From contig CM000434.1 in assembly GCA_000165345.1 (NCBI GenBank), positions 416,001-480,000 of the forward strand: a stretch of 64,000 nt of DNA. Reading direction: 5' to 3'. A program made the translations under genes and the position numbers. The notes under the pieces are model-generated. The model saw only the letters and a list, made by a program, of their open reading frames with translations. It was not told the origin of the DNA and made no database searches. Numbering within the stretch: the stretch's first letter is position 1; each line of letters starts with the position of its first letter. Positions 876-59,615 of the stretch are shown one piece after another.

Positions 876-3707
876 TTAGGCCCAGTAGAGAGCCCAATCA
901 TGAAGAGTATCAACAACTGCGGGAAAAAGTGCATTTGATGACGTCATAATTATTTCTCTTAAATACCTTTCTGCCTCTTTTTCTGATTGATCCAACCTGA
1001 ACTTATCTTTAATTCTTTCCAAAATAGCTGTATAGTTGTTTTCAGGTCTTGAATTGAGATCCTTTATACTACTATCAACCATCAATAACAAAACATTTAA
1101 TATTAGCCATGACTTCCTGCGAATATACCTATAATAATCGCAGCATTTGTCAACAAAAAGCTTGAATCCTAATGAGTTTAATCCGCCCATAGCTTCTATC
1201 ATTTCTGAACAAATTTTCATTGGTGGTGGGAAAGGTTTCGGATCTTCTCCAAATATATATCCAAAATCAACATGTAAAAAGTGGCCGCTTTTCCCGACCA
1301 GTAGATTATCAAGATGCCGATCTCCAACACCAAGTATAAATGTAATAACGCTATATGCTGCGCAACTAGTTATAAAGGTGGTTAGAACATTATGAGGAAT
1401 ATTGTTTATGTTAGTTTTATATGCATTTGCCCAATAATTCAATATGCAATTTTTTCCATATTTTTTTCTGATTGATCCGATTGAAGAAAAATCGTCAAGA
1501 AATTCAATTAATCCATCAAATTGCGAAAACGGCGTAACTTTATATGTGATAATTGAACTGTTCGCATTCCATTCGTTAAGTAGCTTATAAGATATCTCCA
1601 AAAGTTGTACAACTAATCTATCTTGTCTCAAATCATCCCCCACCTTGTACATATATTTTGATTCAACTACAGGATATATTGATTCGGATGTGTAAATATC
1701 CTCTCTCGGAACATTTGCCTGACTATTTTCTTTTTTGCTATTATTGACAATTGCCATTCTACAAGAAAATATAATTGGGCATTGAGAAGACTTGATAATA
1801 AAACTTTCGCTTGGAACAATACCAATTAACGCTCTATTAACATCAATTGGAAGTAGAAGAAGATCACTCAAGTTCGTTATATTTAACAATGGCAGCTCAA
1901 TTCCCTCGATTTTTGAAGGAAGACCCTTTAAACTTTCAATATTGTGACTACTAACAAATTTTAAAGAAAGTAAGTTTCTTTTTTTGCTACAATAATTCGA
2001 AAATTCGCTTTCAACTTTTAACATTAATTTGATCGAGTTGATTAATTTAACAGTTATTTTATCTATACCTGTTGAACGTGAAGAAATCTTTGATTGAGAA
2101 TAAGGCATCTTTCCTAGTTCAAAATCGCTCAATATACTTTGAAATTTTTGTATTTTTTTCTCTGCTCTTTCTCTCTTACAGTCTTCAACTGAAATACGAT
2201 GTATCCATAACAACGTTGCTCTAAATTGTATCTGGCAAAGAATTAGATCAATTATTTCTAAACAGAAATGATATTTACAGCAATGAGATTCCTCCATACT
2301 TTCTTTAATATTATAATTATTATAATCAGCAAGGCCATCAACTATTTCGAATATTGTCTGCTCAAAGACTTTAGGATATTCTTGAATTGAAATTTCCGAA
2401 ATTAACAACCAAAATAATTCAACACAAAATTCTAGATCGCATGTTGCTTTTCTTTTTAGAAACTTCATGAGCTCAGTTCCATTTTCATATCTAAGAGACT
2501 GAACCAGTTGTGGTAGAACAAGAAATAACTCTTCTTTTGTGCAAAATTCCAAGCTTTCTATTGCAAGCTTGCGAATATTCAAGAACTCCTTATATTTTCT
2601 TGAAAGCAAATTTAACGAGTCTTCAATATTCAAAATTCTTTTTTTATGAGTATCAATCGGTTCTTTAATTGTTTGAATGATTGAGCTGATTAAATAATCA
2701 ATTTCAACCATTATTTCTTTATCGCTTAAATTAATAAAATGAAACAACATAGGTATTCCTGCCTTAAATCTGAATAAATAAAACCTGTATTTCCAGATCA
2801 ATCCAACCTCATCCTCATATAAGTCTGTATTATTGAACTTTGTAATATATCCTATATATAATTGATTTATTGCTCTTTCTAACTCCAACCTCTCTTTATT
2901 CATTAAATAATTATTAATTAATGAATTCTCCACAGAAAAACAAGGTAAACGATCTATTGAACATTTGTTATTATTCATTAGAAGACTGAAATCAATTCTT
3001 TTCCCCGAATCTCCAACAGTTGATAGATTTATGTGATCCGAAATAATATTAAAAATGCAACTAGAATTAATTATTTGTTTTGTATTCAAAACGTTTTTAT
3101 TGGCCATTATGTAAGAAACCTTCTTTTCTTTAAAGTTAAATGATAAGCGTAAATAACCAAGTAATTTATCGCTAAATTTGCTCAAATAAATGTCATCTTG
3201 AAATTTATTTTCTTGTGGGAAAAGTATTTCATATATTTGTGCATTCAAATCAAAAATTAATTTTTCCTCGAATACCCCCGAAAAGTTTATTAGAATAGGT
3301 AAGTTAATAGATGAAAGTTTTTCAGTGTAATAAGCCGAAACCAAAGGAAGTATGGAGTACCCGAGTACAAATTCTCCATTACCAAGGTAATTTTCATCTA
3401 ACAGTTTAAAAATATAGACATTAGTATAGTTGCAAAGCGATGAAAAATTAACTGCTCCGCAATTAGGCAAGCCAATCTCACAATTAACACATATCTTCTC
3501 ACTTTTTTTATTTATGTTTTTATCAATTACAATCAGCTGCGATTGAATTGCAGTTTTACTATCTGAAATGATTTTTCCGGATGAATTTATTAAGTATTGC
3601 TCACAATGAACTCTTAGTGCAATTGGAAAGTATTTCATATTCATGAGCGAATATTTACTTTGTATTTTCTCAAATGAGAATGCAATGTAGTCTATGTTAA
3701 CATTCAT
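876..3707 (-). CDS. Phosphatidylinositol 3-kinase, class III (Vps34-like)
   Basis: 943-aa ORF. Catalytic-loop/activation-segment block GDRHLDNLLVGKSGHFLHVDFGYIFGEDPKPFPPPMKICSEMIEAMGG is near-identical to the Vps34 consensus (GDRHLDNLLLT..G.LFHIDFGYILGRDPKP.PPPMKL..EMVE.MGG). N-terminal C2-like and helical accessory regions precede it. Length is Vps34-like. Confidence 0.85.
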   Translation of the reverse strand: MNVNIDYIAFSFEKIQSKYSLMNMKYFPIALRVHCEQYLINSSGKIISDSKTAIQSQLIVIDKNINKKSEKICVNCEIGLPNCGAVNFSSLCNYTNVYIFKLLDENYLGNGEFVLGYSILPLVSAYYTEKLSSINLPILINFSGVFEEKLIFDLNAQIYEILFPQENKFQDDIYLSKFSDKLLGYLRLSFNFKEKKVSYIMANKNVLNTKQIINSSCIFNIISDHINLSTVGDSGKRIDFSLLMNNNKCSIDRLPCFSVENSLINNYLMNKERLELERAINQLYIGYITKFNNTDLYEDEVGLIWKYRFYLFRFKAGIPMLFHFINLSDKEIMVEIDYLISSIIQTIKEPIDTHKKRILNIEDSLNLLSRKYKEFLNIRKLAIESLEFCTKEELFLVLPQLVQSLRYENGTELMKFLKRKATCDLEFCVELFWLLISEISIQEYPKVFEQTIFEIVDGLADYNNYNIKESMEESHCCKYHFCLEIIDLILCQIQFRATLLWIHRISVEDCKRERAEKKIQKFQSILSDFELGKMPYSQSKISSRSTGIDKITVKLINSIKLMLKVESEFSNYCSKKRNLLSLKFVSSHNIESLKGLPSKIEGIELPLLNITNLSDLLLLPIDVNRALIGIVPSESFIIKSSQCPIIFSCRMAIVNNSKKENSQANVPREDIYTSESIYPVVESKYMYKVGDDLRQDRLVVQLLEISYKLLNEWNANSSIITYKVTPFSQFDGLIEFLDDFSSIGSIRKKYGKNCILNYWANAYKTNINNIPHNVLTTFITSCAAYSVITFILGVGDRHLDNLLVGKSGHFLHVDFGYIFGEDPKPFPPPMKICSEMIEAMGGLNSLGFKLFVDKCCDYYRYIRRKSWLILNVLLLMVDSSIKDLNSRPENNYTAILERIKDKFRLDQSEKEAERYLREIIMTSSNALFPAVVDTLHDWALYWA

Positions 3708-3876
3708 TAGTTATTGAGTTTCTTAAATCTACTTCATTTCATCCTACGAAAAAAATTGTTCACACTAAATAAATATTACCGGTATATGTAACAAAGTCTA
3801 CCGCCTTTATTTCAATTAAAAGCGTCTCTTAAAGTATTCATATTAAATGCGTTAGAGGCAGCTTTTTTTCACTCTC

Positions 3877-5883
3877 ATGATTGATAAATCGAGAAGAGGA
3901 CTTAGTCCGCTGATAAGCTATTCAATTCAAAGCCAAGGATGTCTGACGGCAGATCAACAAACTTATTTGCATCTTTCGAACCAGAATTTCAATGGTTTTA
4001 AAGATTTTTATTCTTCAGGCTTAATGACCTTTAAGCAGTTTACTTTAAGTCAAGACGATAATTTAGCTCCAAATGAACTTATTGAAATGTATGATTCTTA
4101 CAAGACTAAATACGTTCAAAAACATCAATTAGAATTTTTAGAAAATAATAGAAACTCGCCCCTAATTCTCGAAAAATTTCACCCAATTTGGATTAGAAAA
4201 ATTATTGATGAACGGAGAAATTTGGTTTTAAAGCGTATTGAAGTTTTTTCTCTGAAATTAAAAAGAGGAGGATTTAGTACAGTAAATAAAACAAACAATG
4301 ACGTCGAAAAAATAGGCTGTGAAATTACTATTACTGATACTAGTCACACTAATGAGAATGACTCGATTACGGTATTTGGAGATTATCCTAATTTTGAGAC
4401 TGATTTGAAATCTCACATTATGTTGCTTACAGACATTCCTAGTTATATTTCATATTTAGATATAACAAAGTTCTTTAACAGTGATTTTCCATTAACAGAT
4501 GGGGGGCTTGGGAAATGCGAAGGTTTCCTTGATATTCTTCTTTCTCCTCCCAGATTTACACGTGGTATTTTAAACAGACATTGTTATGTTTTATTTGATA
4601 ATATGAAGAATAGAGATTCTGCAATTGAATTAATAAAAGGCAAAACAATAAAGTCTTCAGTTACTACTAATTCAATTATTATGTCCTACTGTGATGCGAA
4701 TAATCAGATGGAAGATACAAATGAACATGAAGATCTAGTTGTACAACAACCTGGCGCAAAGTTTTCAATTTATATTATTCAAGCAAAGACTTACAATGAA
4801 AATTATTCCTTAAAAATTAGGCAAATTTCAAATACTTTCTTAACTCAAGAAAGACTTTCAAAAGACAAGAATAATATGAAAAGGATTATTGAAAAAATTG
4901 AAAATGATCAAAGTATTAACTCTAACATAATTGAAGTGATAGAAAGCGTAGGAGGTAGCGACCCCATGAATATTAAAACTGTTGTCGACTTGATGTCGTT
5001 ATATCTAAAGTTTGCGCATGGATTAGACTATTATTCATTATCTACATCACATCCTGTACAATTCATTTCATTTAGCCCTTCAAATCAACAGATTCTGGAA
5101 TGTTCTTCAGATCTTAATAATACGAAAGACTTGAATTTATCTGACACTTTCAGTCGAGAAAATCACGAAAATTCAACCAAAAATAACGAAAAGTCATTCA
5201 TTATATATAGCAATCTCACATTTTTATCTAAGGGATATATCGATACTTTATTTACGAATAAATTTAAAATTTGGTATCAAAGAGACGAAGGTAGTATTTC
5301 CGAATCGCAAATATGCAAGGAGAAAATGGATGAATTTCAAAATCAAGCTCTAGCTAATCAGCTTGAAGAAAATGTTAATATTTTGTTAAAGCTACCATCT
5401 ATTTTTGACCTATTACCCCAACCAATCGAAGATAATGATGAGTCACTCTCTTGTTCATGGAAGAGATATTGTGAACAGCATACATTAAGGAAAAAAGCTG
5501 ATAGATGGCAGTGTGGTAAATGTTTGAAGCAATTTAAAGGTGAAGAATATGTTCATAAACATCTTGCTAAAAAACATAAAGATTTTCTGGAAACAATTAG
5601 AGAAGAAATTACATTTGAAAGAATTATCAAGCCAATAGCAGAAAAATTTCCATATTTAATATACCCAATGAATGCTGACGAGCTTAATATAAGCTCAATA
5701 AATAGGAGAGTAAATGGCAATGGAAATTCTCAAGGTGTATATAGATCAAGAAACAACAAGCACTTACGTTCCAACCCATTCGAAAAAAGAAAGCATTTTA
5801 GAGACTGGGATACGCCAAAACAACAAACAACTATTAACTCATCAAATGATATGAGAACTTCGATAAAATATGATGACTTATAG
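3877..5883 (+). CDS. SERRATE/ARS2 (SRRT)-like zinc-finger RNA-processing protein
   Basis: 668-aa ORF. C-terminal block WQCGKCLKQFKGEEYVHKHLAKKHKDFLETIREEITFERI aligns with the ARS2/SERRATE C2H2 finger region (C..[35 protein letters not shown]). Confidence 0.65.
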   Translation: MIDKSRRGLSPLISYSIQSQGCLTADQQTYLHLSNQNFNGFKDFYSSGLMTFKQFTLSQDDNLAPNELIEMYDSYKTKYVQKHQLEFLENNRNSPLILEKFHPIWIRKIIDERRNLVLKRIEVFSLKLKRGGFSTVNKTNNDVEKIGCEITITDTSHTNENDSITVFGDYPNFETDLKSHIMLLTDIPSYISYLDITKFFNSDFPLTDGGLGKCEGFLDILLSPPRFTRGILNRHCYVLFDNMKNRDSAIELIKGKTIKSSVTTNSIIMSYCDANNQMEDTNEHEDLVVQQPGAKFSIYIIQAKTYNENYSLKIRQISNTFLTQERLSKDKNNMKRIIEKIENDQSINSNIIEVIESVGGSDPMNIKTVVDLMSLYLKFAHGLDYYSLSTSHPVQFISFSPSNQQILECSSDLNNTKDLNLSDTFSRENHENSTKNNEKSFIIYSNLTFLSKGYIDTLFTNKFKIWYQRDEGSISESQICKEKMDEFQNQALANQLEENVNILLKLPSIFDLLPQPIEDNDESLSCSWKRYCEQHTLRKKADRWQCGKCLKQFKGEEYVHKHLAKKHKDFLETIREEITFERIIKPIAEKFPYLIYPMNADELNISSINRRVNGNGNSQGVYRSRNNKHLRSNPFEKRKHFRDWDTPKQQTTINSSNDMRTSIKYDDL

Positions 5884-49282: not shown

Positions 49283-52200
49283 TCAAGCTAAAGCGTCTAT
49301 ACATATACATTTATGTATCATTGACTCAAATTTTTCAGATAGTGCTCTTATATTCACATTATTTGAAGATTTAATCAAATACCTGACTTTTGCTACGAAG
49401 TAAATTGGTAGTTCAATTTGTTTATCTGAGATTATAGCTGTAATAAACCTCAGAGCTTCATCGATAAAACTAAAGCTAAGTAAATTTTCGATTACATTGA
49501 TAAAAATGTGTATATGTTGACCAATTGATGTTGAGCAACTTCTAATTATCTTCATCAAGTACTCTGGGTCTTTATACATTTTTTTTAATTGAATAGGTAG
49601 GATTGAAGTATAAGCGCTATCCGATGGATTATCACTGTTCATTGCACCGTAGATGCGTTCATTTGCCAATAATGCAATGTGAACGCCCTGGAGAAAATAA
49701 GGAGAGTGATTTATACGGCTTATTATTGAACTCCAATAATTAATATTAATAGCAAAGGCCAAATTGTCAGATCCTTTCAGTATTTGTATATTTCTAAGCT
49801 TAGCATTTTGAAGGAGTATTTCTTCGAATACTGTAATTTTCGGATCTGGTGAGCTATATGATAACTTTTTTTTTTTCTGTCCACTAGTTTGCGTTAGGAA
49901 ATCATTTTTATATTCAACTAAAGAATTAAAATATATTGTATTGTATGATAAAAAAAAGCAATAAGTGAACATCCAAAATCCAATAGTTTTATAAATATTA
50001 TTTGGAATAAATTGAGTTAAAGGGTTCGAAAAAATTATCCATTTATTATTTGAAAGATTTGAAGAATAATCTTTAAGATAATTGTTCATAAACTTATTTG
50101 CAACTTGGGTTAGTCTGTGTGAAGTCTCAAAGTAGCCATTGATTATTAAGTAGTAATTTAGCTCTACAATAGATATGCTTAACAAACTAGCTAAGTTTTT
50201 TGAACAAAACAGATGCGGATTAAATATTGTTTTGAAGTAAATTCCACTACGTTCTAAGTAATTCTTGTATCTTTCAATGTTTTTGCAAAAATTAATGAAA
50301 TGTTGATAAGTTTCTGCTAAAGTTAAATCTGAAGTTAATAATTTATTTATTCCGACAAAATACCACTTTAAGTAAGAAATATATTCAATAGACGGTAAAA
50401 ATGTGACCTTATGGTGAATTCCTTGAGAATAATTATTTTGATAGATTATTTTTGGAAGTTCAATACCGAAAAAGAGATTTGGTATACAAATAGGTTTATC
50501 AGAATATTGCCGATCATTAAATTGGTTTATTAGTGTAGCGCTTGAATAAGTAATGCATGTGTTTAATGAAGAGATAATTATGTTTAAAGGCTCGGAATCC
50601 GCATTAATGACTTCTTTTTCAAAGCTGAAGTATTGGATTATACCACTCAAATTCTCAAGCGCCTCATTTATGATTTTAAATGAATCGAATTCTTCATAAC
50701 GAGAATTATTCATTAAAATAAATTCTATCCAGCTCTCCGGAAATAAAGCATTTGTACAATTATTATATGAACACAAATCGCAATATTTATCCAGTGCATT
50801 TAAATATGCTAAAGTGACTATTTCTTGATACCTCTCTCCTCTTTTCCATTCATTCATTAGAAACTTATAAATTGATCGAACTATGAAAGCACCTTTTGAG
50901 TAAAATCTTAAAAAAGCTTCCGAATTAGTGTTATTAAGGAATTTAGTTTTTTTCCAGAATATCTGAATTAACAATGAATAAAATTCTTCAAGTTCAGTTG
51001 CAAAAACTGATGCCGAAATTGTAGAAAATTTCAATTCACTTTTATTTTCAACTTTGTTTGACAAATAATGCTTGATCCAAAGGACCATCAGAAACAGCAT
51101 TTTCTCATGCTTAGAATTAAAGCATGACAATGATTTATTTAGAAGCTTAACTATTGAATGATCTTCGATATTATTTCCGCTCAAATATATATATTGTATT
51201 AGATATTTTTTATGAATCTCATTAATTAATATTTTCTGGTTTGGAGAGCAACTGGAGAAACATGCGCATATCAGATTAATTGATATTTCTAATAAATTAA
51301 AGTATATTGAATTATAGTATATTTTTATTCTTGGTTTACTAAACAATCTAAATATTAATGAAATTAAATAAATAACTTTGATTTCGTTGCAAGAAAACCC
51401 TTCAAGTATGTTTTTTTTATTTTGATCTTCTTTTGGTTTAATTAATTCAATGATTTCATCAACTAACTTAATATCACTGATCAATTGTTTTAATATTGAA
51501 AGTGATGAATCTGAAGTATGACTTTTATAGGGAAGCAAACGAATGATATATGAAATGTAGCGCGTGTAGTTGTGTTCAAAACATCCATTGATAATTTGTT
51601 GTTCAAGGTAATCGTAAACTAAGTCAACCAGCTGAAAATTACATTCTTGAGAAACTTTTTTAGAACAAAAGTCATTAAGAAATAGCTCCCAGAAAATTTT
51701 ATTTGAAAAAATATATAGAGAAAGATCATTGGCTCCAGAATCGATAAAAACATCTGAAGAAAAAAATTTGTATATTGAATTATAATATAAATAAACCCTA
51801 TAAACTTGATCAACAGACGGAACAAAATGATGTTCATTGATCCTCCCACAATTATGAGTAATAATATTCAACTTTCCTGTTACCATATATTTGCCTAGAT
51901 TCAAAAATGAATAATCTTCTGAAAAAAACTGTAATATATTTTCAACTCCACAGCTATATGTTAAATTTATATTTCTAATTAAATTTTTCCAGGAAAAATA
52001 CTTGAAAATATTTCTTGTAATAATTGAATAGATATTCAAAATTAAAATAGTATTTTTTACCTTCATTATTTCTAAATTAGAAGCTTTAAAATATTTATTA
52101 GTTTCTTTATCCACGGAATTTAATACTAAGCACTTAACATCACCGTTATGATCTGCTTTAATTGATTTTCCAACGAAATTTAAAACTTCATCATTTGATG

Positions 52201-54313
52201 TTGGTGAAAGATTGACAAAGAATTGGATTATGTTCTGTATTAATGATTTAAGTTCATCCGTTGTGAAATTCTGTGTTAATATATCATAATAGATCAAGTT
52301 AAAATTATTTATATAATTAGATGCTGGGCTGAAAATTTCATTTAGCGATGTATAATGGTTAATAGTATCCTCTAATTTATTCATAAAAGTAAGCTTCTTA
52401 GATAGTACTTCTATAAGCTCCATAATTAAAGCGCACACTATAATTTTATTATTTATTCCATCTGAGATGTAAAAATCGAATAAATCGAATAAATGTTTGT
52501 CCAATCTTGTTTTATTGCTATTAAAAATAATTCTCAATACCAAATACTTTAATTTTAGATAATTTCTTATTATTTCAAGAGATATGTATAGATATGAATT
52601 ACAATTGTCGGAAATTGATGATGGCTTATCCAACTCTTGTCTGGATAAAGAACTTATAACAGAAACTGATATAGGAGATAATAAAAAAGTTTTATCTTTA
52701 TCTGAAAAAATTCGAATACAGTAATTGCCAATATTTTTAAAGTAATTAATTAAGAGATGAAGAGGCGTGATTATGAATATTATCTTTTCTATATCATATT
52801 TGCATTTTATACGAGTCTCAAACTCTTTATTTATTAGTGCTTTCCCATCTAGATATATGTAAACATTTTTCATTAAATTTACCAAGTCCTCAAATTTAGA
52901 AGTTGAGTATAAAATATTCAACAGCTCACATTGTTTCTTTTCGCAAACAATCTTTGAAATAATGCTTTCAAGGAATCTCAAATATCTATTAAAAGCCATA
53001 GCAACTACAGTGTTTGATTTACACTCACCAATAACTCTACAGAGAAGAAAATTTATGATTTCTTCAAAGTTTGATAGTTTTTCTATATTGGAAATTAACT
53101 TGCATTTTAAATCACTAATATCAAGTGGATTTTTAAAAGAATTTTGTAGTCCCTGACTCCAAACTAACGTAGAATTGCCTAGATTGGCATTTGATGGGAA
53201 ATTGTTCGAAGTGTGATCATTTAAGCAAATTTTGTGAATCTCACAAATTGGAAGGCATAAATCATAATCATTCATAATATTTCCAGGAAAAGCTGCCCTG
53301 GCAATATAAATTTCTGATTTATTACAATAGACCTGAGGATATAACAATTTTTTTTTATCTCCGCTCTGTTGAAGATCTAAATTAAGATAACTTGAAAGTT
53401 GCAAATTAATGTTTTCGGAATTATAATCACAAAAGTTCAATATCTTATAGAGATAAACTGTACTGTTAATCAACAAAACAAAATGATCTGTGCCTTCTAG
53501 GAGGGAAATTACAGGGTGGGTATCTATATTAATTCCAATTTCAATATCTGTTCTTCTATCAATTATATTACTACAAACATTATTTTCTGCAGGATTAAAT
53601 CTGATCAATATAAGACATAATTCTTTATTTTTTTCAGAAAATGTAATTAAATAAATATTTTCTGTGTTTTTGTTGGTTACTGTAGTTTTCACTATTTGAA
53701 ATGCAGAAATTTCGAGAGATTCTGTAAAGATATTTTTTTTAATAAATAGTGGTAAAAACTCGTCTTTCAAGATTGTTGAATTTGAAATTATCCCAAAAAC
53801 CCCCAATTCATTGCATGCTAAAAATAGAGATTTAGTTGCTTGAGTAAGTAATTTCAAATTTGAAAGCTCCGTTTTGAAACTTCTCGTTGTCAAAATATTA
53901 AAACCATACTCGCATTCCCCAAATACAGATATCTCAATGATATATAACTGTCCTTCATTAGAGCAAACTGAAATCGTGAGAATTGATGTGCATCTATCGA
54001 AAAATAAACTACAATTACAATTTGGATTGAATGGTAAATTTATATTAAATAATGATTTAATATTTGGTGCTCTACATTTATCTTGAGCTCTGTCTCTAGA
54101 AAATATTATAGTGGAGACATTGTAAACACAGATTGTATCGTTATTTATTACTGAGGCAATATGTAAATCATCGAACAACTTTAATTCATTACCAAAAAAT
54201 TTGTCAAAATCAGAATACGTATCTGTACAATTGTTTCTTTCATTTGTTAATTCTGCATAAAAATTATTAGAGAAAGCAAAATAGCCAATGATCTGCTCAA
54301 CATTTAGAAGCAT
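49283..54313 (-). CDS. Very large hypothetical protein (1676 aa), N-terminal beta-rich region followed by a helical solenoid
   Basis: Uninterrupted 5-kb ORF. Clathrin heavy chain has the same length but was excluded because its conserved N-terminal motifs are absent. No family assigned. Confidence 0.6.
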   Translation of the reverse strand: MLLNVEQIIGYFAFSNNFYAELTNERNNCTDTYSDFDKFFGNELKLFDDLHIASVINNDTICVYNVSTIIFSRDRAQDKCRAPNIKSLFNINLPFNPNCNCSLFFDRCTSILTISVCSNEGQLYIIEISVFGECEYGFNILTTRSFKTELSNLKLLTQATKSLFLACNELGVFGIISNSTILKDEFLPLFIKKNIFTESLEISAFQIVKTTVTNKNTENIYLITFSEKNKELCLILIRFNPAENNVCSNIIDRRTDIEIGINIDTHPVISLLEGTDHFVLLINSTVYLYKILNFCDYNSENINLQLSSYLNLDLQQSGDKKKLLYPQVYCNKSEIYIARAAFPGNIMNDYDLCLPICEIHKICLNDHTSNNFPSNANLGNSTLVWSQGLQNSFKNPLDISDLKCKLISNIEKLSNFEEIINFLLCRVIGECKSNTVVAMAFNRYLRFLESIISKIVCEKKQCELLNILYSTSKFEDLVNLMKNVYIYLDGKALINKEFETRIKCKYDIEKIIFIITPLHLLINYFKNIGNYCIRIFSDKDKTFLLSPISVSVISSLSRQELDKPSSISDNCNSYLYISLEIIRNYLKLKYLVLRIIFNSNKTRLDKHLFDLFDFYISDGINNKIIVCALIMELIEVLSKKLTFMNKLEDTINHYTSLNEIFSPASNYINNFNLIYYDILTQNFTTDELKSLIQNIIQFFVNLSPTSNDEVLNFVGKSIKADHNGDVKCLVLNSVDKETNKYFKASNLEIMKVKNTILILNIYSIITRNIFKYFSWKNLIRNINLTYSCGVENILQFFSEDYSFLNLGKYMVTGKLNIITHNCGRINEHHFVPSVDQVYRVYLYYNSIYKFFSSDVFIDSGANDLSLYIFSNKIFWELFLNDFCSKKVSQECNFQLVDLVYDYLEQQIINGCFEHNYTRYISYIIRLLPYKSHTSDSSLSILKQLISDIKLVDEIIELIKPKEDQNKKNILEGFSCNEIKVIYLISLIFRLFSKPRIKIYYNSIYFNLLEISINLICACFSSCSPNQKILINEIHKKYLIQYIYLSGNNIEDHSIVKLLNKSLSCFNSKHEKMLFLMVLWIKHYLSNKVENKSELKFSTISASVFATELEEFYSLLIQIFWKKTKFLNNTNSEAFLRFYSKGAFIVRSIYKFLMNEWKRGERYQEIVTLAYLNALDKYCDLCSYNNCTNALFPESWIEFILMNNSRYEEFDSFKIINEALENLSGIIQYFSFEKEVINADSEPLNIIISSLNTCITYSSATLINQFNDRQYSDKPICIPNLFFGIELPKIIYQNNYSQGIHHKVTFLPSIEYISYLKWYFVGINKLLTSDLTLAETYQHFINFCKNIERYKNYLERSGIYFKTIFNPHLFCSKNLASLLSISIVELNYYLIINGYFETSHRLTQVANKFMNNYLKDYSSNLSNNKWIIFSNPLTQFIPNNIYKTIGFWMFTYCFFLSYNTIYFNSLVEYKNDFLTQTSGQKKKKLSYSSPDPKITVFEEILLQNAKLRNIQILKGSDNLAFAININYWSSIISRINHSPYFLQGVHIALLANERIYGAMNSDNPSDSAYTSILPIQLKKMYKDPEYLMKIIRSCSTSIGQHIHIFINVIENLLSFSFIDEALRFITAIISDKQIELPIYFVAKVRYLIKSSNNVNIRALSEKFESMIHKCICIDALA

Positions 54314-54587: not shown

Positions 54588-55634
54588 ATGGGCCAAGCTA
54601 ATAATAAAAATCAACAAAAAAAAGCAACTCAACTCCATCATAGAAATGTGCATGCCAATGATGATTTTTTATTTTTATCTGAAAGATACCCTGAGCTTAA
54701 AAAATGTATCAAAATAATAAATAATAAAGTACGTATTAATTATAACCCCGCAGCATTACACTGTATTTCGAAAGTATTGCTGCATTACAGATATAATATT
54801 AATTGGGACATACCGGATAAATTTCTAATACCAACAATACCTTCGAGAGCTAACTATGTACACTTTATTTCAGACCTGTTAACTCCAGAACACTTTTATA
54901 ATACGGAAAAAGTAAACGATGAAGGATTAAGAAACGATCTAAAGACAAAAACATGTATTGAAGGTGGTACAGATGTTTGTTTTTCTGAGCTTATTCCTAG
55001 AGGAAAACAAGTTTTGGGGTTTGATATAGGAATTGGTGCAAACTGCATATTTTCTCTTCTATGCAACAAAATTTATTCTTGGAATATGATCGGCTCAGAT
55101 ATTTCAATTGAAAGCCTGAGTGTTTCAGACACTATTATTAAAAAAAACAATCTTTGTGGTTGTATAAAACTTTTGCATCAAGAAAAACCAGAATATATAT
55201 TATTCGGGATACTTGACAAAACTGAAATAGAAGACTTGAAATTCTCATTCACTATCTGTAACCCTCCATATTATGATTCAGTTGAAGATTCAGAAATTAA
55301 TATGCACCCTGCTCGCTTCAGGAGTTGTCAAAATTACGAAATAATAACTCATGGAGGTGAATCTCAATTTATCTTGAAATTGTATTTCGAAAGCAAGAAT
55401 TTTTCGAAAAGGGTAATCTGGTACACTTCTCAAGTTTCGAAACTAAAAAATTTGAAATTTTTGAAAAGTGTTCTTAAAAAAGAAATCATTAACAATGAAT
55501 TAAAATCACTTAGATACACTACTCTAAAACAAGGGAAGCATGACAAGTGGGTAATTGCATGGAGCTTTTTTGAAAAGGAAGAGAGAACCTCAATATTAAA
55601 GTTTCTCAGAAACAATAAAAACATGAGCTCTTGA
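54588..55634 (+). CDS. METTL16-like RNA N6-adenosine methyltransferase (U6 snRNA m6A methyltransferase family)
   Basis: PAALHCISKVLLHYRYNINWDIPDKFLIPTIPSRANYVHFISDLL aligns with METTL16 [42 protein letters not shown]. SAM motif I GFDIGIGANCIFSLL vs GIDIGTGASCIYPLL. Catalytic NPPY/F (FTICNPPYY vs FCMCNPPFF). C-terminal KWVIAWSFFEKE vs RWALAWSFYD. Confidence 0.75.
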   Translation: MGQANNKNQQKKATQLHHRNVHANDDFLFLSERYPELKKCIKIINNKVRINYNPAALHCISKVLLHYRYNINWDIPDKFLIPTIPSRANYVHFISDLLTPEHFYNTEKVNDEGLRNDLKTKTCIEGGTDVCFSELIPRGKQVLGFDIGIGANCIFSLLCNKIYSWNMIGSDISIESLSVSDTIIKKNNLCGCIKLLHQEKPEYILFGILDKTEIEDLKFSFTICNPPYYDSVEDSEINMHPARFRSCQNYEIITHGGESQFILKLYFESKNFSKRVIWYTSQVSKLKNLKFLKSVLKKEIINNELKSLRYTTLKQGKHDKWVIAWSFFEKEERTSILKFLRNNKNMSS

Positions 55635-55775: not shown

Positions 55776-57301
55776 ATGGATGGGACGCTACATCAAAATG
55801 AAATTATTTCTTTGCTAGACGAAAAAAGAACCATTTCAAGCACAATAAAATTTTCGTCGCTACTTGGGTCTATTACAATAACCAAGTTAGTAATATTTTT
55901 GGTCGGATTCTCAGATGGACTGACTCACCTCGCAACGCTGGCAATTTACTACTTGCTGAAGGATGATTTACGCCTCTCTCCTCCTGAAGTATCGGTTATA
56001 TATGCAATTCCTGCGATACCTTGGTTTTTGAAACCTTTATTTGGTAAGCTACAAACCATTTTTTAAAGTATAAATAAATTTCTTAAAGCATTTTGCAGTG
56101 ATTCAATACCTATTGCAGGTAAGCTTGAAGCTCATTCAAATATATTCGTATAACATACTTATAGGAATGAGAAGAAAGCCATACTTGATTTTTTTCTCAA
56201 TTCTTCAAGTTATAGGCTTTTTACTACTTGCAACAAACGTAAGTTAACTCTAAATTTATAATAATATTTTTAATAGTTTCAGGCTGATACTGTTTTTAAA
56301 GCTGCAGTCTGCCTACTACTAATATCTTTAAGTGCAGCATTTTGTAGCAGTATTGCTGAGGTAAGTTATTAGAAAATAGATTAATTAATCAATAATCTCT
56401 AAAAAAACAGGCATTAGTTGTAGAGACATCTGGAATTAATGGTGGTGCTGAAACAGTCTCCGATTATTTTGGCTCAAAGGCATTGGGTGCACTAGCAACG
56501 GCATATTTTTCTGGTTCATTGTTAGATACATACAGTAAACAAGGAATATTTCTTACAACGTCAATTTTTCCATTATTTGTTTTTATCGCTTGTCTGATAA
56601 TGGATGATAAAAAACAGACAGAAGATCTCACTGCGAAGAATCAGCTATTTTCGCTTAAGGAATTTTTGAAAAAACCCATAATTTGGGGGCCTGCAATATA
56701 TATTTTTACTTATACTGCAGGACCAGACTACGACGATGCAATGTTTTTTTACTTTACAAATAGGCTTGGCTTTTCGCCGACATTTATGGGTAGCTTAAGG
56801 CTTACTTATGGAATTGCAGGTATAATTGGAATTGTTCTATATAGAATTATTCTCAAGAAGACCCCATTCCGTGAAATATTGCTTTGGACTACTTTGTTTT
56901 CAATACCAATTTATATTCTACCTCTAGCGCTTGTCACAGGACTCAATTTGAATATGGGAATTTCGAATAGAATGTTTGCATTGTCTGGTGGATTTCTGAT
57001 TGAAGCCATTGCAGAAATACAGTTGTTACCACTTCTTGTAATGACTGCAAAGTTTTGCCCAAAAGGCCTTGAAGGGTCTGTATATGCGGTTATGATGTCA
57101 ATACGAAGTCTTGGAATAGGGGTTTCAAAAGTTATCTCCGCAGGATTGGCCTACTCACTTGGAATTACAGCATTCAATTTTTCAAACTTGGGGTTATTAA
57201 TTTGGATTTCTTCCGCATTTCTCCTGCTGCCTCTCTTTTTTCTAAATTTGGTTAGTTATCATACTTTTTCCATATTTCAAGTTCATTTTTTTAGGTTGTG
57301 A
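55776..57301 (+). CDS. Folate-biopterin transporter (BT1 family, MFS), 5 exons: 55776..56043, 56089..56118, 56165..56238, 56283..56360, 56411..57301
   Basis: Exon 1 carries the BT1 signature GLTHLATLAIYYLLKDDLRLSPPEVSVIYAIPAIPWFLKPLF. Splicing gives ...KPLFAFCSDSIPIAGMRRKPYLIFFSILQVIGFLLLATN... (cf. plant/protist BT1 [30 protein letters not shown]), then ADTVFKAAVCLLLISLSAAFCSSIAE and ALVVETSGINGG... continuing into the listed ORF 56483..57301. Introns of 45, 46, 44 and 50 nt (GTAAGC/GTAAGT donors, AAG/TAG/CAG acceptors). An alternative acceptor at 56098 is excluded because it creates an in-frame TGA in exon 3. Total 1341 nt, 446 aa, roughly 11 TM helices. Confidence 0.75.
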
Positions 57302-57446
57302 ATGAAGAAGAGATCCAAAGTACAGAAAATCAAGTATAATTCAATATTCTCAAAATGATTAAAATTAAATAACGAAATATCTTATGAGATTTTATTTAGA
57401 ATTGAAAATAATTTTCTATACTACAGTAAATTTTTACTATGAAAGT

Positions 57447-59615
57447 CTATATTGAACGGTTACTTTGCTTCTTTACTTTGTAAATTCTTATAACCCAATT
57501 ATCAGTTGTATAAGCTTCCTCAAAATGAGTAAGTGAGAATTGAGTTTTACCTATGTGGTAATTCCTTACTAAGTCAAAACCATCCTTCTGAAGATCCGAA
57601 AACCTATAATATGATAGCTTGTAAATCAGAGAATTAAGCATCGCATTAGATGCGTCTTTCCCCACAGTATAATGCCCACTATCCGATAGATAATCGTTTT
57701 GCTGAATGTGAGGATAAATTCCAGAAGCAATTCTTACCATCCATAAGAATTTATTGATATCATCAGAAGAATATTTTGCAAACCCACCAAATACAACAAA
57801 AACATAATCTACATCCAGTTTTTCTATTATTTTATAAGCCTCATCCTCAGGAGATGCCAATGCAAGCCCAACTGTAGCGATATGTGTGTTATTCCATGTA
57901 TTGTTATCTACAATTACGGTTCTGTCGCCTAATTCAGTGCATTGATATCCATAATCCCACCAAGACATTATCCTTGCATTGTAAGGGGTGTTCTTTCTCA
58001 ACCAATAATATGCTTCCCTAAAATCATCCTGAATTAGTCTAGTTCCATCTCTAAGACGGTTTGAAGTAATTACTGATGGATGCGAATACGCAACAGCAGA
58101 GCTCCAAACACTATGCACGACATAACTCACACAGAGCAAAAACATTAATAATACAAAAAAAACTCTGAGAATACCAAAATTCCCTTGGCTCCCGTCACCA
58201 TAAGTGGTTTTTTTTGTTTGCCTTCTGCCTATTAGACTCGATAATATAAAAGAAAATCCCACTGCAGAAAGGCAACAAGCCGCAGGCCCAAAAACCAGCA
58301 TCAGTCTAATCATGACAGAAGAAAAATAGACAGCAAGGACTCCATATACAATTAAAAATATTGCAGTATCGGGAATGCACGTACTATGTGATGTTTGAAA
58401 TGGTGAATTTTTTGGTGATTTTTTTTGAGAAATATAAATTGAATACGCACAGACAAATATTCCAAGAGGGAAAAATATCGCAGTAATATGGAGGTCAAAA
58501 ATATACTGTGACCAAGTTGTTGCTTGGTGTTCTGATACTGATGCGATAATAGGAACATGCTTAGACGCATATGTGGGATCTAAAAGAGTCATACTTCTTG
58601 CCGCCCACCTAGTTTTTCCAGACAGTGTCAATACCAAGAAGGCGGAGCTAGATACCAAGAAGCAAGAAATCCATATAGCTTTTAGAAGTATTCGGCTTGA
58701 AGAAGTGCTCAGAATATATTTTGAGGAGTTCAATGCTATAACGCACACTACAAGAAATGCCATACAGTGTGATGAAAGGTGTTCCGAAGATTTTACGGCG
58801 CCCACGTTGACAAATGGAATGTTAAGGTTCAATATTGTACCAATAACATAAAATACAATATAAACTACAAAGTGTTTGTATGTAAATCTGTTGAGTAATA
58901 CAAGAGCTAGTGTATAGATTGCAATTGTATTAATTACAAACACATATCCTCCCCAACTCATAGTCATATAATTGTAGGCAAGAGCTGCAAAAAATGAACT
59001 CAATATTCTACCATCATTTACTGCCCTCAAATATAGTGCAAAGCTGAATACAAGAGCAAAAATTGCAACTGCTTCATTATCATAACTTCCTGCAACGCTC
59101 CTACTCAGATACGTAGGAGATATACCCGTAAAGAGAGCTGCCATTATTCCCGTTTCATTTCGCTTAGTTATTTGAAATGTGAGTAAGTATGAAGCAAGTG
59201 CAGTTAGACTTGAGATTATTGGTCCTGTAAAAACACAAATGTGTAAAATACTTACAAGTAAACCCAATTGATGTGCAATATACCTCATCAAAGCAGCAGT
59301 AAGCATGAGACCAGGAAATAGAGTTTGCCCAATAATCCTACCAAGAGGGTACCAACTCCTGCTATCAAACCAGTTCCAAAATGCATAAAACCCATGTTTT
59401 GAAAGAAATTTCGAGGTTCTATAGTTAAAATGTGGATCAAACTCGTGTATTATCGCCTCATATCTTACTACGGCAAAAAGCCTCACAAAAATACAAAGTC
59501 CCATAATTAAAACCACGGATAGAAACAACAAAACAGGAGATATCCTTCCAGCAGATTCAAATATTGATTTTTTTTTGTATTCATTTTCTAATTCTTTATA
59601 ACTTATGTCTTTCAT
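57447..59615 (-). CDS. STT3: Oligosaccharyltransferase catalytic subunit STT3
   Basis: 722 aa, multi-TM N-terminal half, WWDYGYQ (the invariant WWDYG motif), DK-type motif DNNTWNNTHIATVG, and MxxI-like region. Typical STT3 architecture. Confidence 0.95.
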   Translation of the reverse strand: MKDISYKELENEYKKKSIFESAGRISPVLLFLSVVLIMGLCIFVRLFAVVRYEAIIHEFDPHFNYRTSKFLSKHGFYAFWNWFDSRSWYPLGRIIGQTLFPGLMLTAALMRYIAHQLGLLVSILHICVFTGPIISSLTALASYLLTFQITKRNETGIMAALFTGISPTYLSRSVAGSYDNEAVAIFALVFSFALYLRAVNDGRILSSFFAALAYNYMTMSWGGYVFVINTIAIYTLALVLLNRFTYKHFVVYIVFYVIGTILNLNIPFVNVGAVKSSEHLSSHCMAFLVVCVIALNSSKYILSTSSSRILLKAIWISCFLVSSSAFLVLTLSGKTRWAARSMTLLDPTYASKHVPIIASVSEHQATTWSQYIFDLHITAIFFPLGIFVCAYSIYISQKKSPKNSPFQTSHSTCIPDTAIFLIVYGVLAVYFSSVMIRLMLVFGPAACCLSAVGFSFILSSLIGRRQTKKTTYGDGSQGNFGILRVFFVLLMFLLCVSYVVHSVWSSAVAYSHPSVITSNRLRDGTRLIQDDFREAYYWLRKNTPYNARIMSWWDYGYQCTELGDRTVIVDNNTWNNTHIATVGLALASPEDEAYKIIEKLDVDYVFVVFGGFAKYSSDDINKFLWMVRIASGIYPHIQQNDYLSDSGHYTVGKDASNAMLNSLIYKLSYYRFSDLQKDGFDLVRNYHIGKTQFSLTHFEEAYTTDNWVIRIYKVKKQSNRSI

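Follow-up and report, generated by a model that had tools for sequence, protein, structure and literature searches.

What do two disconnected open reading frames (ORFs) on chromosome 6 of Cryptosporidium parvum encode? They lie in a 64,000-nt window (positions 416,001 to 480,000 of the forward strand of contig CM000434.1, assembly GCA_000165345.1; ~30% G+C over its whole length), and all coordinates below count from the first letter of this window. One ORF, at 55776..56066, starts with ATG and encodes 96 amino acids (aa); the other, at 56483..57301, starts with TTG and encodes 272 aa. Our analysis indicated that the region 55776..57339 on the forward strand is, with high probability, a single six-exon gene for a 444-aa transporter with 12 transmembrane (TM) helices, which belongs to the BT1/FBT family within the major facilitator superfamily (MFS) and would import folates or pterins. 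Because five short spliceosomal introns, each 44-50 nt long and with GT..AG termini, break the reading frame, the gene appears as two disconnected fragments in a prokaryote-style ORF track.

A sequence-only reading of this DNA had already assigned the two ORFs to one gene with four introns. We enumerated every GT..AG path with introns of 25-150 nt that linked both ORFs without an in-frame stop. The path using the four junctions of that reading (56043/56089, 56118/56165, 56238/56283 and 56360/56411) ranked first among 28,102 paths against three distant homologues, one each from Toxoplasma, Plasmodium and a cyanobacterium. The introns thus defined were 45, 46, 44 and 50 nt long, all were of the form GTAAG..AG, and the joined frame was open over 446 aa. 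An alternative acceptor at 56097/98 put an in-frame TGA into the next exon, as the reading had argued, and the three tiny internal exons of 30, 74 and 78 nt were confirmed; their lengths are fixed in seven species. The 3' end was revised: one more intron, the fifth, gives the gene not five exons and 446 aa up to 57301, but six exons and 444 aa up to 57339. The deduction from raw sequence was good, with four of the five introns and all of the tiny exons found, but it was incomplete at the 3' end.

A protein search matched the 444-aa product to QOY41083.1 (CPATCC_002726) and WRK32803.1 (GCA_035232765.1, CP141123.1) with 100% identity over 100% of its length. These entries, named 'Folate-biopterin transporter' or BT1 family protein, represent the same gene and show no difference from it. 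The deposited gene span of 1,564 nt corresponds exactly to 55776..57339 on DNA identical to the window, and the gene with its 500-nt flanks is identical to both CP141123.1 and CP029785.1 (GCA_031892065.1). The open joined frame and the identity of the product to a deposited full-length protein indicated that both ORFs are parts of one gene. The annotations that supply the 444-aa models are, according to their authors, supported by RNA-seq and Iso-Seq; the re-annotation of C. parvum IOWA-ATCC declares its introns 100% RNA-seq supported (PMC8744675). Reverse transcription PCR, expressed sequence tag and Southern evidence for the gene was given by Huang et al. (2004), who assigned the CAD98492 gene to chromosome VI (PMC545779).

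Could the two ORFs represent two separate genes or mRNAs? About 420 nt with stops in all frames lie between them. In addition, early annotations contained the 3' part only: an entry of 301 aa was titled 'transmembrane protein with 6 transmembrane domains, partial', and one from C. hominis had 233 aa. However, the first ORF alone covered only positions 2-47 of the BT1 profile, with 23.6 bits, and the second begins at a TTG inside TM5, within exon 5. The joined product spans profile positions 2-420 unbroken and forms one 12-helix MFS fold, and the orthologues are single proteins in all apicomplexans examined. We therefore give two separate genes practically no credence and continue with the single gene.

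The assignment of the product to the BT1 folate/biopterin family, made earlier from the letters alone, was supported by Pfam. The BT1 profile (PF03092) matched with 266.3 bits (cut-off 22), aligning protein residues 48-439 with profile positions 2-420 of 432, and the MFS_1 profile matched with 71.6 bits. For the topology we used an AlphaFold model of the 444-aa product (predicted local distance difference test, pLDDT, 90.9; predicted template modelling score, pTM, 0.88). It contained 12 long TM helices arranged in two six-helix domains, as in MFS transporters. A sequence search of the PDB with the product matched no chain. A Foldseek search of the PDB gave 446 matches at E<=0.001; every one of the 50 best, which were listed, was an MFS transporter. 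Among the matches listed were MdfA, SotB, VMAT2, G6PT1/SLC37A4, MelB and YajR, which have the same 12-helix two-domain fold with TM-scores of ~0.6-0.8; these solved MFS structures are only 12-17% identical to the product, and no BT1-family structure was among the matches listed.

To examine conservation, we aligned the gene from seven Cryptosporidium species: C. parvum, chipmunk genotype I, C. ubiquitum, C. canis, C. felis, C. bovis and C. andersoni. Exon lengths were constant at 268/30/74/78/840/45 nt, except for exon 5 of C. felis, which has 837 nt because of a 3-nt deletion, and the 3' end of C. andersoni, whose ORF is two codons longer. Identity was 71-85% in exons, 41-51% in introns, which carried many indels and ranged from 41 to 77 nt, and 38-45% in the flanks (Table 1); the introns were thus about as diverged as the flanks. 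GT..AG termini were present in all 35 introns (five in each of seven species). Termini that are kept, intron bodies that have diverged and exon lengths that are fixed are the pattern of canonical spliceosomal GT-AG introns. Most variable exon columns fell on the third codon position, and the same architecture gave open proteins of 443-446 aa in all seven species. The deposited model of C. andersoni, a species that is divergent within the genus (PMC5146892), arrives independently at the same six exons. A pseudogene was also considered; it was ruled out by the open frame in seven species and the third-position substitution bias.

Table 1. Exons and introns of the BT1 gene and its neighbours in the window, with conservation across seven Cryptosporidium species.
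Feature	Position	Strand	Description	Conservation
Exon 1	55776..56043	+	268 nt; ATG at 55776; aa 1-89 and first base of codon 90; N-terminal tail, TM1, most of TM2	75% mean identity; variable columns by codon position 42/16/81; start M(D/E/T)..HQNEI conserved
Intron 1	56044..56088	+	45 nt; GTAAGC..TTAAAG; phase 1	45-67 nt; 51% identity, with indels
Exon 2 (micro-exon)	56089..56118	+	30 nt; AFCSDSIPIA, aa 90-99, including Asp94	85% identity, highest of all segments; variable columns by codon position 2/1/6
Intron 2	56119..56164	+	46 nt; GTAAGC..TTATAG; phase 1	46-70 nt; 41% identity
Exon 3	56165..56238	+	74 nt; GMRRKPYLIFF...; second half of TM2-TM3 loop motif, TM3	76% identity
Intron 3	56239..56282	+	44 nt; GTAAGT..TTTCAG; phase 0	41-77 nt; 48% identity
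Exon 4	56283..56360	+	78 nt; aa 125-150; TM4	76% identity
Intron 4	56361..56410	+	50 nt; GTAAGT..AAACAG; phase 0	45-65 nt; 47% identity
Exon 5	56411..57250	+	840 nt; aa 151-430; TM5-TM12	75% identity; variable columns by codon position 114/43/250
Intron 5	57251..57294	+	44 nt; GTTAGT..TTTTAG; phase 0	44/45/46/46/42/57/57 nt, mostly not multiples of 3; 47% identity
Exon 6	57295..57339	+	45 nt including TAA stop; VVNEEEIQSTENQV; acidic C-terminal helix after TM12	
Methyltransf_10 RNA methyltransferase (neighbour)	54588..55634	+		
STT3 (neighbour)	57447..59615	-		
AMPK-CBM protein (neighbour)	59792..60646	+		

The end of the protein depends on the fate of intron 5. In the five-exon model, with exons of 268/30/74/78/891 nt, this segment is retained, and the 446-aa protein ends in ...LNLVSYHTFSIFQVHFFRL at a TGA at 57299..57301. 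The frame is open through the segment as far as this TGA. Older or automated models carry the read-through tail: EAK90128.1/XP_627563.1, C. hominis XP_667451.1 and the entries of C. meleagridis, C. ubiquitum, the chipmunk genotype, C. bovis, C. felis and C. canis. The last 16 residues of this form (SYHTFSIFQVHFFRL, plus a V that is coded by read-through and splicing alike) are translated intron 5. However, read-through gives each species a tail with no relation to those of the others, and the length of the segment, 42-57 nt, varies by non-multiples of 3. Its GT..AG termini were found in all seven species; the downstream exon 6 was conserved, with the motif V(V/I)NEEE in all seven and the stop aligned in six. 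Splicing raised the BT1 score by 6.6 bits and extended the profile match from position 412 to 420, and the resulting acidic C-terminus fits the acidic tails of the Plasmodium and Toxoplasma homologues. RNA-seq-based annotations likewise adopt the spliced form. Retention of intron 5 is thus very improbable, and the six-exon structure is kept.

We then considered exon 2, the 30-nt micro-exon. The product contains the loop motif KP..(A/G)F.SD..P..G.RR.PY as KPLFAFCSDSIPIAGMRRKPY at aa 86-106, and exons 1, 2 and 3 each encode a part of it; exon 2 codes for its first half and for the TM2 end that faces the cytoplasm. Residues 86-95 form this end of TM2 and residues 96-103 the loop to TM3 in the AlphaFold model; from this position between TM2 and TM3, we take the motif to be the BT1 family's version of MFS motif A. 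Two family alignments were made, with 13 and with 63 members, drawn from cyanobacteria, algae, plants and apicomplexans. In both, K86, P87, D94 and R103 were invariant and G100, R102 and Y106 almost so (at least 90% conserved in the 63-sequence alignment). Because exon 2 holds this family-invariant Asp, it is probably needed for a working transporter.

Three deposited C. parvum models, CAD98492.1, WKS78312.1 and KAL5368076.1, have 434 aa and lack the micro-exon, reading KPLF-G-MRRKPY across the junction. CAD98492.1, the published C. parvum BT-1, comes from the same locus and DNA; it uses exons 1, 3, 4, 5 and 6, and hence has no Asp94. The underlying DNA is identical, so the difference between the 434-aa and 444-aa C. 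parvum models is purely a choice of annotation. Exon 2 could be skipped normally or conditionally, making the 434-aa protein the main product or a regulated isoform. Skipping would stay in frame, since 30 nt are 10 codons. Two observations count against the six-exon structure here: the 434-aa model has been deposited for C. parvum as well as for C. hominis and C. tyzzeri, in C. parvum on the same DNA as the window, and scans of metagenome contigs for spliced junctions, with an exon 1-exon 2 pattern and with a gapped pattern fitting mRNA with exon 2 either included or skipped, gave 0 matches. As cDNA of C. parvum is probably absent from that collection, these scans say nothing either way.

The conservation data argue for inclusion. 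The micro-exon was 85% identical, compared with 41-51% for the introns; its splice sites were intact in seven species, and its substitutions were mostly at third positions. Skipping removes D94 and costs 26.4 bits against the BT1 profile, as judged by scores of 266.3 bits for the 444-aa product, 259.7 for the 446-aa read-through form, 239.9 for the 434-aa form without exon 2 and 186.8 for the 301-aa fragment. Exons of 30 nt are readily missed by gene predictors. Furthermore, the re-annotation paper lists only three putative alternatively spliced genes (CPATCC_0027530, CPATCC0027960 and CPATCC_0035590), whose identifiers do not obviously match CPATCC_002726, the tag given with QOY41083.1. We consider skipping of exon 2 improbable, and the sequence comparisons suggest that the 434-aa deposited models are probably wrong. 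A stage-specific variant, in which skipping would produce a transport-dead 434-aa isoform and place the sole folate/pterin carrier under splicing-level control, appears if anything a little less probable; if true, alternative use of exon 2 would account for the discrepancy (444 vs 434 aa) between annotations that were informed by transcripts and concern identical DNA. We proceed with exon 2 included.

Other deposited entries were compared with the six-exon structure. Exon 2 is skipped in the entries of chipmunk genotype I, C. ubiquitum, C. bovis and C. tyzzeri and in some entries of C. hominis. The C. felis entry is frame-shifted over exon 3 (GRNEKETISTLIF...); the DNA codes for GMRRKPYLLLF, and the TATAG acceptor is intact. 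The old partial model EAK90128.1 begins with a translated part of intron 4 (SLKKQ-ALVVE...). The 434-aa, 301-aa, 272-aa and 233-aa entries, together with most orthologue entries from species other than C. parvum, probably mis-splice the locus, the correct form being six exons and 444 aa. A published transporter table gives two folate/pterine transporters for C. hominis UdeA01 and one for every other Cryptosporidium species (PMC6532270). Because this locus is often split or truncated in annotations, the second UdeA01 count may stem from one gene annotated in two pieces rather than from a paralogue.

The product was further compared with known transporters of the family. The closest characterised relative, Plasmodium FT2 (PfFT2/PbFT2), is a BT1/FBT member with ~48-51% identity over >90% of the length, and it has the same loop motif and an acidic C-terminal tail. 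Going by match names, the Plasmodium matches that bore a specific one were all 'folate transporter 2', at 45-51% identity, and no FT1 was among the matches listed. The FT2 gene is intronless, and PbFT2 is located in the apicoplast, an organelle that Cryptosporidium lacks; moreover, Plasmodium makes folate de novo and has FT1 as well, unlike Cryptosporidium. Beyond apicomplexan-type sequences, the closest relatives were cyanobacterial folate/biopterin MFS transporters and plant proteins named as chloroplast folate-biopterin transporter 1. They were 33-39% identical and shared the motif and the 12-TM layout. The plant proteins, named chloroplastic in their source records, have N-terminal extensions of ~100 aa, whereas the Cryptosporidium protein has only a ~30-aa N-terminal tail. 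Members from plants and cyanobacteria have been characterised (Klaus et al., 2005, as cited in PMC4010794), and Leishmania FT1/BT1 also belong to the family (PMC4010794, PMC7616068).

While the gene structure, the family, the fold and the conservation were observed here, the substrate, the direction of transport, the coupling and the location are inferred, the function from these relatives. The sequence-only reading had linked the gene to parasites that lack de novo folate synthesis, and according to the tables of Liu et al., Cryptosporidium indeed lacks the biosynthesis of both folate and pterin, and each species has one folate/pterine transporter (PMC5146892). PfFT1 and PfFT2 carry folates and their precursors in oocytes and E. 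coli (PMC7616068, PMC4010794). By analogy, a role in folate/pterin salvage is plausible: the transporter would import host folates and/or pterins that the parasite cannot make, through MFS alternating access. Uptake would be carrier-mediated and, judging from the family, probably proton-coupled. Since a plastid is absent, the most likely site would be the plasma membrane of the parasite or its interface with the host.

Several points weigh against this role. P. berghei FT2 was localised to the apicoplast and not to the plasma membrane, with a small apical fraction, and the authors of that study argue against a role in salvage (PMC7616068). The demand for folate may be modest, since C. parvum can do without DHFR-TS (PMC6800313). 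The papers found contained neither a transport assay nor a localisation of the Cryptosporidium protein, and nothing relevant to Cryptosporidium folate biology in PMC2877875 or bioRxiv 10.1101/2023.03.05.531216. The six-exon structure could therefore be right while the protein serves an internal compartment, as a plastid-type relic like PbFT2, or carries another substrate, p-aminobenzoic acid being a candidate. A Leishmania member of the FBT family transports S-adenosylmethionine. The apicoplast residence of PbFT2 and the cyanobacterial and chloroplastic names of the nearest non-apicomplexan-type relatives are in favour of an internal site. Cryptosporidium, however, has no apicoplast, and some importer would be needed because the gene is the sole reported family member in a genus that lacks folate and pterin synthesis (PMC5146892). 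In addition, no N-terminal targeting extension was evident in the AlphaFold model, in which the first ~27 residues were short and of low confidence. We treat an internal compartment or another substrate as possible but doubtful, and import of host folates or pterins as the preferred role.

The surroundings of the gene were also examined. Gene order around it was kept in six further Cryptosporidium species. The BT1 gene and STT3 form a tail-to-tail pair (57339 and 57447, 107 nt apart), which was also found in the coccidian Cyclospora cayetanensis (1501-4243 and 4318-5743 of the extracted locus); micro-synteny thus reaches past the genus Cryptosporidium. On the 5' side of the methyltransferase, 49283..54313 (-) holds an unbroken ORF of 1,676 aa with no Pfam domain at E<=0.001, and other Cryptosporidium species have large genes (1,511-2,686 aa) with no Pfam hit on record in the matching position. 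The Methyltransf_10 neighbour of C. ubiquitum (2035-2856 of the extracted locus) is annotated with 273 aa, compared with 345-352 aa in other species and 348 aa in the window; this entry is probably a model truncated at the 5' end. Scans of the whole 64-kb window were negative for tRNA genes (ARAGORN) and for Rfam families at their gathering scores.

Are the introns older than the genus? Four of the five lie in the first 635 nt of the gene. We mapped the introns of the Cyclospora and Porospora orthologues with an exact spliced mapper and a junction resolver and projected them onto one alignment; the comparison is only as accurate as the gene models deposited for these two lineages. The Porospora orthologue had four introns of 26-29 nt. 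The Cyclospora orthologue had 17, including two apparent GC-AG introns (donors GCGTGA and GCAAGA), and contained an 8-nt micro-exon, GCCCGATG, near the C-terminus between ..TTGTAG and GTATGC.. (within 4051-4171 of the extracted locus). None of the five Cryptosporidium introns coincided in codon and phase with the 17 of Cyclospora or the four of Porospora, and Plasmodium FT2 has none; ancient shared introns were rejected for the sampled lineages. Intron 5 came nearest, at a distance of 2 nt from one of the Cyclospora introns. As far as these alignments go, the five introns are conserved genus-wide, including in C. andersoni, and are not demonstrably shared beyond the genus. The lineage is known for intron loss, and genus-wide introns without shared positions outside were unexpected in it. 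In CryptoDB 6, introns were annotated in only 4.2% of genes (PMC5146892), and a gene with five introns is unusual in that genome.

The gene itself was already known: it was published in 2004 as BT-1, a nuclear gene of inferred cyanobacterial ancestry (PMC545779), and the exact six-exon protein is in GenBank. Apart from the correction of annotations, the finding is ordinary. Its remaining value lies in annotation hygiene, as evidence against the widespread 434-aa and read-through models. The commonest annotation error deletes a family-invariant residue, and anyone expressing, tagging or modelling the transporter from a 434-aa record would probably work with a non-functional protein. As the sole reported folate/pterin carrier in a genus unable to make either compound, the transporter is a reasonable candidate for a nutrient-uptake bottleneck (PMC5146892). 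In an apicomplexan without a plastid, the gene is, in addition, a long-known marker of plastid ancestry in the past (PMC545779).

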